A stretch of DNA of 36,784 nt from a virus. Its lineage: Duplodnaviria; Heunggongvirae; Uroviricota; Caudoviricetes. A program made the translations under genes and the position numbers. Positions 34,683-35,536 of this stretch are shown here, piece after piece (within the stretch, counting starts at the first letter, position 1; each line of letters begins with the position of its first letter). The notes below the pieces were generated by a model that ran no database searches, was not told the DNA's origin, and saw only the letters and a program-made list of their open reading frames with translations. The stretch lies in the IMG/VR virus record IMGVR_UViG_2778261535_000012, positions 1-36,784 of that record, one strand, 5' to 3'.

Positions 34683-34806
34683 CCACAGCCTCACACTCGA
34701 TGAGGCCTGTTCATTTCTCAAGATATCCAGACCTACCATTGCTGCATCAATGCGGCTTTTTATTGCCTGATTTGCAGGTTCGATTCCATATTCGGAGATA
34801 GCACTC

Positions 34807-35007
34807 ATGCAACACGAACTACAGCCTGATTCACTGGTTGATTTGAAATTCATCATGGCCGATACTGGCTTTGGTAAAACCTTCATCTACGACCGGATTA
34901 AGTCCGGCGACCTGCCAAAAGCCAAAGTTATCCACGGTCGAGCAAGATGGTTATATCGTGACCATTGTGAATTCAAAAATAAGCTCTTAAGCCGCGCCAA
35001 TGGGTAA
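34807..35007 (+). CDS. AlpA/Xis-family DNA-binding protein (putative excisionase)
   Basis: 66 aa; pattern L.DLKFIMADTGFGKTFIYDRIKSGDLPK...GRARWLYRD fits the AlpA/excisionase winged-helix family; last phage gene before the att core. Confidence 0.65.
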   Translation: MQHELQPDSLVDLKFIMADTGFGKTFIYDRIKSGDLPKAKVIHGRARWLYRDHCEFKNKLLSRANG

Positions 35008-35080
35008 AATAGCGGGTAAAATATTTCTCACATCTAAAAAACATCATTCCAATCAATCCCCTGCCGCGTCAAGTAGATGT

Positions 35081-35095
35081 CTGCAGGGGACACCA
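35081..35095. other. Putative prophage attachment core: tRNA 3'-terminus-like sequence (CTGCAGGGGACACCA) without a tRNA body
   Basis: The sequence ends in ACCA and resembles a T-stem 3' strand plus acceptor 3' strand; from memory it matches the 3' end of E. coli tRNA-Arg argW. Upstream bases do not form a T-loop, so this is a partial copy. Confidence 0.5.
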
Positions 35096-35536
35096 GATAC
35101 CCTTCAAACCAAATCTACCTTCACCCCGTAAAAGATGGGTTTGGCAGCACACTTGCCCTATATCTACTCATTTTTACTGCAACAGGTTGAAATCTCAGCA
35201 CTGTCAGAAAGCGCTGATGACTAAACAGCCCTGGGCCGGGCGATGTAACCATCATACAGAATCCTGATAGCGAAATATGGCGTGACTCGATACTTCACTC
35301 TGCAATGCATTCCTTGATGAATTCGCAGGCCCGTGATACTCGGGACAGGTCGCTGAATGACGACAATGTCCTGGAAATCAGCGAACCGCGTATCCGGAGT
35401 ACATTTGAGCGACTGTACCAGAACATGAATGAGGCGTTTGGATTAGGTGATTATTAGTTGGGCTAAGCATTTTTGTATTACTATTTTCCGGTTGAGGGAT
35501 ATGGAGATATCGACAACAACCGGAAAAAGTTTACGT

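Follow-up and report, generated by a model that had tools for sequence, protein, structure and literature searches.

The torI–attR end of a P22-like prophage at argW, and a tRNA T-arm copy upstream of torI

We analysed a 36,784-nucleotide stretch of viral DNA, referred to here as the window, concentrating on its right-hand part, where the last prophage gene, a short phage-derived arm and a tRNA-derived core follow one another before chromosomal DNA begins. The initial annotation had placed a gene at 34807–35007, a gap of about 73 nt after it and a tRNA-derived core at 35081–35095, and all three are present as it stated, the gene being an open reading frame (ORF) of 66 aa. It was also right that no int gene stands between the excisionase-like gene and the core or cscB, as the ORF list shows, and that non-phage DNA and cscB lie to the right of the core; in complete genomes, this DNA is the native flank of argW. 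The features are listed below in window coordinates.

1–999, minus strand: 5′ part of a P22-type tailspike gene with the head-binding domain, running off the left edge of the window (frame translation)
34741–34765, plus strand: intrinsic-terminator-like hairpin and T-run, GCTGCATCAATGCGGC TTTTTATTGC, which separates torI from the early-left genes
34772–34787, plus strand: exact 16-nt copy of argW nt 46–61, TTGCAGGTTCGATTCC (comparison with argW)
34777–34787, plus strand: the 11-mer GGTTCGATTCC, inside the 16-nt argW copy
34778–34782, plus strand: the pentamer GTTCG, inside GGTTCGATTCC
34795–34800, plus strand: torI Shine-Dalgarno sequence GGAGAT (direct reading; conserved across aligned leaders)
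34807–35007, plus strand: torI, 66 aa, RDF (excisionase) and TorR inhibitor, the last prophage gene (identity to PDB 1Z4H)
35008–35080, plus strand: phage-derived P arm of attR, 73 nt from the torI stop to the core (collinear with HK620/Sf6 attP and K-12 attR)
35081–35095, plus strand: attR core CTGCAGGGGACACCA, equal to argW nt 61–75 and the exact prophage–chromosome boundary (K-12/AST215 comparison)
35096–35536, no strand: native chromosomal flank of argW in csc-positive E. coli (empty attB reconstruction)
35305–35457, plus strand: DUF4942 gene remnant, 50 aa (Pfam)
35537–36784, minus strand: host gene for a sucrose/oligosaccharide MFS transporter of the cscB type, part of the argW-csc-dsd island (ORF list, RefSeq)

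The ORF list contained no integrase-sized ORF between 35007 and cscB (35008–35536), ARAGORN detected no complete tRNA in the whole window, and Rfam, run at permissive thresholds over 34600–35400, returned matches at chance level only. Two minor items lie around the core. A 43-aa ORF (35000–35131, plus strand) overlaps the torI stop and crosses the att core into host DNA, with counterparts in HK620 (hkaB) and Sf6 (gene 17); since its C-terminus is necessarily altered by integration, a real gene is improbable here, and the ORF is probably not one. Between attR and cscB, the DUF4942 match (E = 8e-06) covers profile positions 18–62 of 190, and the same remnant is annotated by RefSeq in many csc-positive genomes; it is probably debris of an older island at the argW hot spot.

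The product of the ORF at 34807–35007 was identical at 66 of 66 residues to PDB 1Z4H, the “Tor inhibition protein” TorI of E. coli K-12, and torI is also the RefSeq name in matching genomes. The label “AlpA/Xis-like” given initially is fair as a loose description, and the precise identity is TorI. Its relation to the AlpA/HTH_17 excisionase family is distant: Pfam HTH_17 (PF12728) reached 16.9 bits (E = 0.0079), where the gathering threshold is 27. Some sources label homologues of TorI “AlpA family”, and NCBIfam returned no model match for TorI or its neighbours. TorI was first discovered as an inhibitor of TorR, with which it interacts (PMC3509656), and it is the essential RDF of the cryptic prophage KplE1 (CPS-53), acting on HK620 substrates as well (PMC2951348, PMC3509656). 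When viral contigs were scanned with a TorI family alignment, all matches were E. coli copies of 100% identity, which brought in no further diversity.

We located the prophage–chromosome boundary by comparison with argW, using K-12 and AST215, the latter being the closest complete genome (99.9% identical over 34300–35600). The sequence CTGCAGGGGACACCA is identical to nt 61–75 of tRNA-Arg(CCU) argW from both strains, which comprise most of the 3′ half of the T-stem, the 3′ strand of the acceptor and CCA. The same 15 nt correspond to K-12 “pawZ”, the pseudo-argW that follows torI at the end of CPS-53; the KplE1 core has been published as CTGCAGGGGACACCAT (PMC2951348). The window, K-12 and AST215 align near-perfectly from upstream of torI to 35095, after which K-12 diverges, and the att repeat is 15 nt here versus 16 nt in K-12, the 16th base (T) being absent because the host flank is different. 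A synthetic empty site, made by fusing argW to window 35096–35300 and searched in 5426 complete E. coli genomes at a coverage of at least 80%, was matched in 2245 of them, several at 100% identity; the matched site is annotated as tRNA-Arg. The occurrence of the empty site in this many genomes indicates that the DNA to the right of 35095 is the native argW flank and that 35081–35095 is the attR core.

The arm directly to the left of the core (35065–35086) resembles a tRNA T-loop in the same register. At 11 of 25 loci the sequence is TTCGAtGTa-TGCAGG, and in E. coli it is GTAGAtgtc-TGCAGG; the arm looks like either a degenerate continuation of the tRNA identity block or a core-type site for the integrase.

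The initial annotation had started from the premise that the early-left operon ends in the order xis, int, attP, an order that holds for lambda, HK022 and P22 and fails for Sf6, HK620 and CUS-3, the phages that the annotation itself had named for comparison. In the HK620 and Sf6 records, hkaC or gene 18 (the equivalent of torI) is followed by the attP core and then by int. The left arm of the window attR (60 nt) matches the left arm of HK620/Sf6 attP, with only 3 bases substituted over that length when these phages and K-12 attR are compared, and the right arm of attL in K-12 and AST215 (60 nt) matches the right arm of the same attP. Matching arms of this kind are what attP × attB recombination classically leaves behind. 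With the crossover site situated between the RDF gene and int, the two are inevitably split apart by integration. The layout is argW-intS…torI-pawZ in K-12 and yfdC-tRNA-Arg-intS-tailspike-…-torI-cscB in AST215, and in KplE1 intS is described as the first gene and torI as the last (Panis et al., PMC3509656). This split layout of int and torI is stated explicitly in the literature (PMC2951348, PMC3509656, PMC8787464).

Two suggestions had been offered initially for the missing gene. The suggestion that the prophage relies on an integrase encoded elsewhere was essentially correct, given that the order in HK620/Sf6 and the layouts of K-12 and AST215 place intS at the opposite end. The other, that the prophage has lost int and is grounded, found no support, as the absence of int beside torI is the normal architecture in HK620, Sf6, K-12 and AST215. 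The alignment with the HK620/Sf6 int–xis regions, which had been proposed as a check, spoke against a deletion between torI and the core: the 73 nt between them are collinear, with no scar.

The left edge of the window was examined through the draft contig NMHT01000053.1 (60,129 bp; assembly GCA_002511955.1), to which an exact search with the sequence of the 615-aa gp16-like protein led. Over the 15,479 nt compared, window and contig are identical: the reverse complement of the first 15,481 nt of the contig equals the window at an offset of 2 nt with zero mismatches, so that the window begins at contig nt 3. A partial gene of 333 aa, the tailspike, is called at this contig end. The window therefore starts at the end of a draft contig inside the tailspike gene, and attL, intS and argW fall outside it; because the contig breaks inside this gene, features “missing” to the left of the window reflect the limit of the assembly and not biology. 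In AST215, the homologous tailspike continues for ~1.5 kb, intS follows within ~170 bp, and argW comes next. By analogy with this layout, the integrase of the window prophage would be expected ~1.7–2.9 kb beyond the window. An exact 60-mer from the window tailspike had no match in a one-genome-per-species collection.

Pfam assignments on the contig stretch identical to window 1–15479 revealed P22-type genes for portal, scaffold, coat, gp4/gp10 head completion and gp7/gp20/gp16 ejection, together with immI (arc/ant). The N-terminus of the window tailspike is the head-binding domain, and the gene order agrees with that of AST215. The prophage is a P22-like (Lederbergvirus-type) element with a seemingly complete genome. 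One ORF in this region, encoding a 164-aa HNH_3 (PF13392) endonuclease (8753–9247, minus strand), separates the gp10-like head-completion gene from the next tail gene, at a junction where the related prophage of AST215 has no gene; it looks like a free-standing homing-endonuclease insertion.

Comparison with named systems placed the window within an established type. KplE1 in E. coli K-12 shares with it an identical TorI, the same core, a nearly identical attR P arm and the position of torI as the last gene before attR at argW; K-12 has only a 10-kb remnant, whereas the window has a seemingly full P22-like genome, and the host flank to the right of attR is dsdC in K-12 versus the csc island in the window. 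The lederbergviruses HK620 and Sf6 are 97–98% identical to the window in DNA over 34752–35095 (leader, torI, P arm and core), and the attP region of Kapi1 (Lederbergvirus) has been described with the same arrangement (PMC8787464). These phages are unintegrated and carry int after the core, where the window has chromosome; upstream of 34752, the mosaic early-left genes are not the same in the window as in HK620, Sf6 and Kapi1. The lambda, HK022 and P22 modules resemble that of the window in standing at the end of the early-left operon, in combining a small winged-helix RDF with a tyrosine integrase, and in having a core in common with the host site; HK022 is also 93% identical to the window upstream of the RDF gene (34690–34775). 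In the lambda type, in contrast, int lies between xis and attP with both genes at one prophage end (HK022 annotation), whereas the window type has attP flanked by the RDF gene and int, which are uncoupled in their transcription, and the promoter of int overlaps attL (PMC2951348).

With these comparisons in hand, the locus is very probably a normal recombination module of the KplE1/HK620/Sf6/Kapi1 type at argW, with intS predicted at the left end of the prophage beyond the window. In such a module, the circular phage carries, in order, the early-left genes, a terminator, torI (RDF), the P arm, a 15/16-bp core, the P′ arm with the intS promoter, and intS. Integration puts intS beside an intact argW (attL) and makes torI the last gene at attR, followed by the 15-nt 3′ fragment of argW and host DNA. 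In the published system, excision proceeds in trans, with IntS, TorI and IHF recombining attL with attR and regenerating attP. A promoter that lies within attL and is negatively autoregulated drives intS, and TorI occupies five 8-bp sites of the GTTCG type on attL (PMC2951348). For the window, the dependence of excision on TorI, IntS and IHF is predicted from this biochemistry by the identity of the parts; the attR half, comprising torI, P arm and core, is intact in the window.

The alternative that survives best is that the prophage is grounded after all, its integrase having been lost or inactivated at the unseen left end, which would leave TorI and attR orphaned and the element unable to excise itself. 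The left end does lie outside the window, which starts at a contig end, and a related P22-like argW prophage (locus L010) has a truncated integrase of 163 aa. Against this, the window bears no sign of decay: TorI is intact and identical to a functional protein, the P arm and core are intact, and the same DNA holds the full P22-type virion gene set assigned by Pfam. Furthermore, attL-intS, found at a coverage of at least 80% in 1864 complete E. coli genomes, is commoner than torI-attR, found in 1405 of 5426 (26%). As the absence of int beside torI is the normal layout, it is not evidence for loss; since true integrase decay does occur, as at the locus with the truncated gene, we leave this alternative a small probability and regard it as unlikely.

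An explanation centred on the TorR-inhibitor role of TorI takes up the way in which the protein was first found and its interaction with TorR (PMC3509656). The essential RDF function in KplE1 and the activity on HK620 substrates (PMC2951348, PMC3509656) oppose it, as does the place of torI in a seemingly complete prophage, at the canonical position 74 nt from the core; moreover, the two roles are not exclusive, and we consider this explanation very improbable. A lambda-type module from which int was deleted between xis and the core, which has only the general expectation from lambda and P22 in its favour, is refuted by the collinearity of the 73-nt torI–core segment with attP of the functional free phages HK620 and Sf6, with no scar. 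The near-constant distance from the RDF stop to the core in other genera (given below) also speaks against it, as does HK022, which has a genuine lambda-type module and departs from the window shortly before torI; its probability is next to nil. The preferred reading of a normal split module at argW describes an architecture that is already known and very common.

We extended the comparison to homologues of TorI, which occur at 60–86% identity in at least 15 genera of Enterobacterales. In integrated copies, for example those of Cronobacter, Edwardsiella, Klebsiella, Rahnella and Mixta, the phage genes end with the RDF gene and host genes come next. Among 28 loci, the core (TGCAGGGGAC[A/G]CCA or a close variant) starts at +74 from the RDF stop in 24, at +75 in 2 and at +86 in 1, the 27 loci with a core representing more than a dozen genera. 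The one exception is Proteus, where the 140 nt following the RDF stop contain no recognisable core. At the two Proteus loci (L022 and L023, 3001–4338), a 62-aa TorI homologue overlaps a convergent 385-aa integrase, which is followed by tRNA-Arg(CCU) or by gtrA/gtrB, so that the same pair of genes is arranged differently.

An int gene lies ~250 nt downstream of the torI homologue in the same orientation at two loci, one in Hafnia (L017, 3001–4634 of a 4.87-Mb contig) and one in Cedecea (L137, 1625–3228), where torI homologue, core and int stand in attP order. The Hafnia arrangement is inside the chromosome and is followed by a P4 cII-like gene, which hints at elements in tandem at tRNA-Arg, a satellite-like one having integrated in the attR of the prophage.

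For the reading of prophage sequences, the absence of an integrase next to xis must not be taken as prophage decay, and the present locus is a textbook example. Pipelines and completeness scores that expect int and xis together will mislabel P22-like elements at argW.

A second tRNA-derived segment lies upstream of torI. Position 34772 opens TTGCAGGTTCGATTCC, which reproduces argW nt 46–61 exactly: the T-loop, preceded by the 5′ half of the T-stem and followed by two bases of the 3′ half of that stem. The copy lies 20–35 nt upstream of the torI start codon, and its 11-mer GGTTCGATTCC, 30 nt upstream of the ATG, occurs once in the window versus 0.01 times expected. The T-loop copy is also present in K-12, HK620 and Sf6. 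Homology to the lambdoid phage HK022, including the PI region TTGCGTGTAATTGC, ends at about 34768, which places the tRNA-like block at a mosaic joint.

Of the 27 loci with usable upstream sequence, 13, belonging to at least eight genera, carry GGTTCGATT(C/T)C at −29/−30 of torI (−36 in Serratia). The invariance of the motif is partly by construction, because the loci were sorted by its presence. The informative part is the all-or-none pattern of the motif together with the contrast with its flanks. The 25 nt upstream of it in the motif-bearing leaders are almost without conserved columns, and the torI coding sequences of these loci have a mean nucleotide identity of 75%, with 58% at third codon positions. 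The motif precedes diverged torI genes in Hafnia, Edwardsiella, Enterobacter, Citrobacter, Serratia, Cedecea and two Pantoea strains.

The motif also resembles recognition sequences of the recombination proteins. The published TorI sites, mapped on K-12 attL, are CAGTTCGC, CAGTCCGC, CAGTTCGT, TGGTTCGC and CAGATCGT; the motif holds GTTCG, a pentamer of these sites, and has GGTTCG in common with site I4 (TGGTTCGC). Cedecea attP carries the same tandem GTTCG triplet before its int promoter. In many genera the left core arm of attP has the form of a degenerate T-loop (TTCGAnGTn-TGCAGG), a hint that IntS recognises T-loop-like DNA. A tentative reading, which we hold as possible and on the doubtful side, is that the T-arm copy (core GGTTCGATTYC) is a conserved regulatory site, most plausibly an operator for TorI or for the core-binding domain of IntS. 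As to its origin, we hypothesize that the block derives from a longer tRNA-derived part of an ancestral attP and was kept as a candidate TorI/IntS site; if it is no operator, the copy may be the relic of a longer identity block in attP. In the literature searched, which did not extend to the 2007 JBC att-site paper (doi 10.1074/jbc.M701827200), we found no description of a T-arm copy before torI, and it may be undescribed.

Other accounts of the block were considered and set aside. A T-arm-like hairpin in the torI mRNA was rejected, as the bases flanking the GG…CC pair inconsistently across genera. A cII-activated PI promoter, suggested by the HK620 annotation, which puts a cII box here, was rejected as well: the TTGC-N5-TTGC box upstream of the motif occurs only in Escherichia-type leaders and with the wrong spacing, being absent in Hafnia, Edwardsiella and Serratia, and therefore cannot explain the conserved 11-mer. 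A precise insertion of torI, prompted by the exact tiling of argW in E. coli (nt 46–61 and 61–75), was weakened by Serratia and Pantoea, in which the upstream copy reaches argW nt 63 and overlaps the core.

If the operator reading were true, the site would couple expression of the RDF to the recombination proteins in a module where transcription of int and xis is uncoupled. The promoter and control of torI have been described as uncharacterised (PMC2951348). A functional T-loop copy would be of modest importance, the operator completing the regulatory picture of the recombination module.

Within 34250–35600 we found 5 terminator-like sites versus 1.1 expected from shuffles. Three terminator-like hairpins stand before torI (34303–34318, 34688–34706 and 34741–34756), and the terminator position of the 34741 hairpin reads gccgcctgatggcggtttttt in HK620 and Sf6. 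This arrangement fits transcription of torI either by antitermination from the early-left operon or from a promoter of its own.
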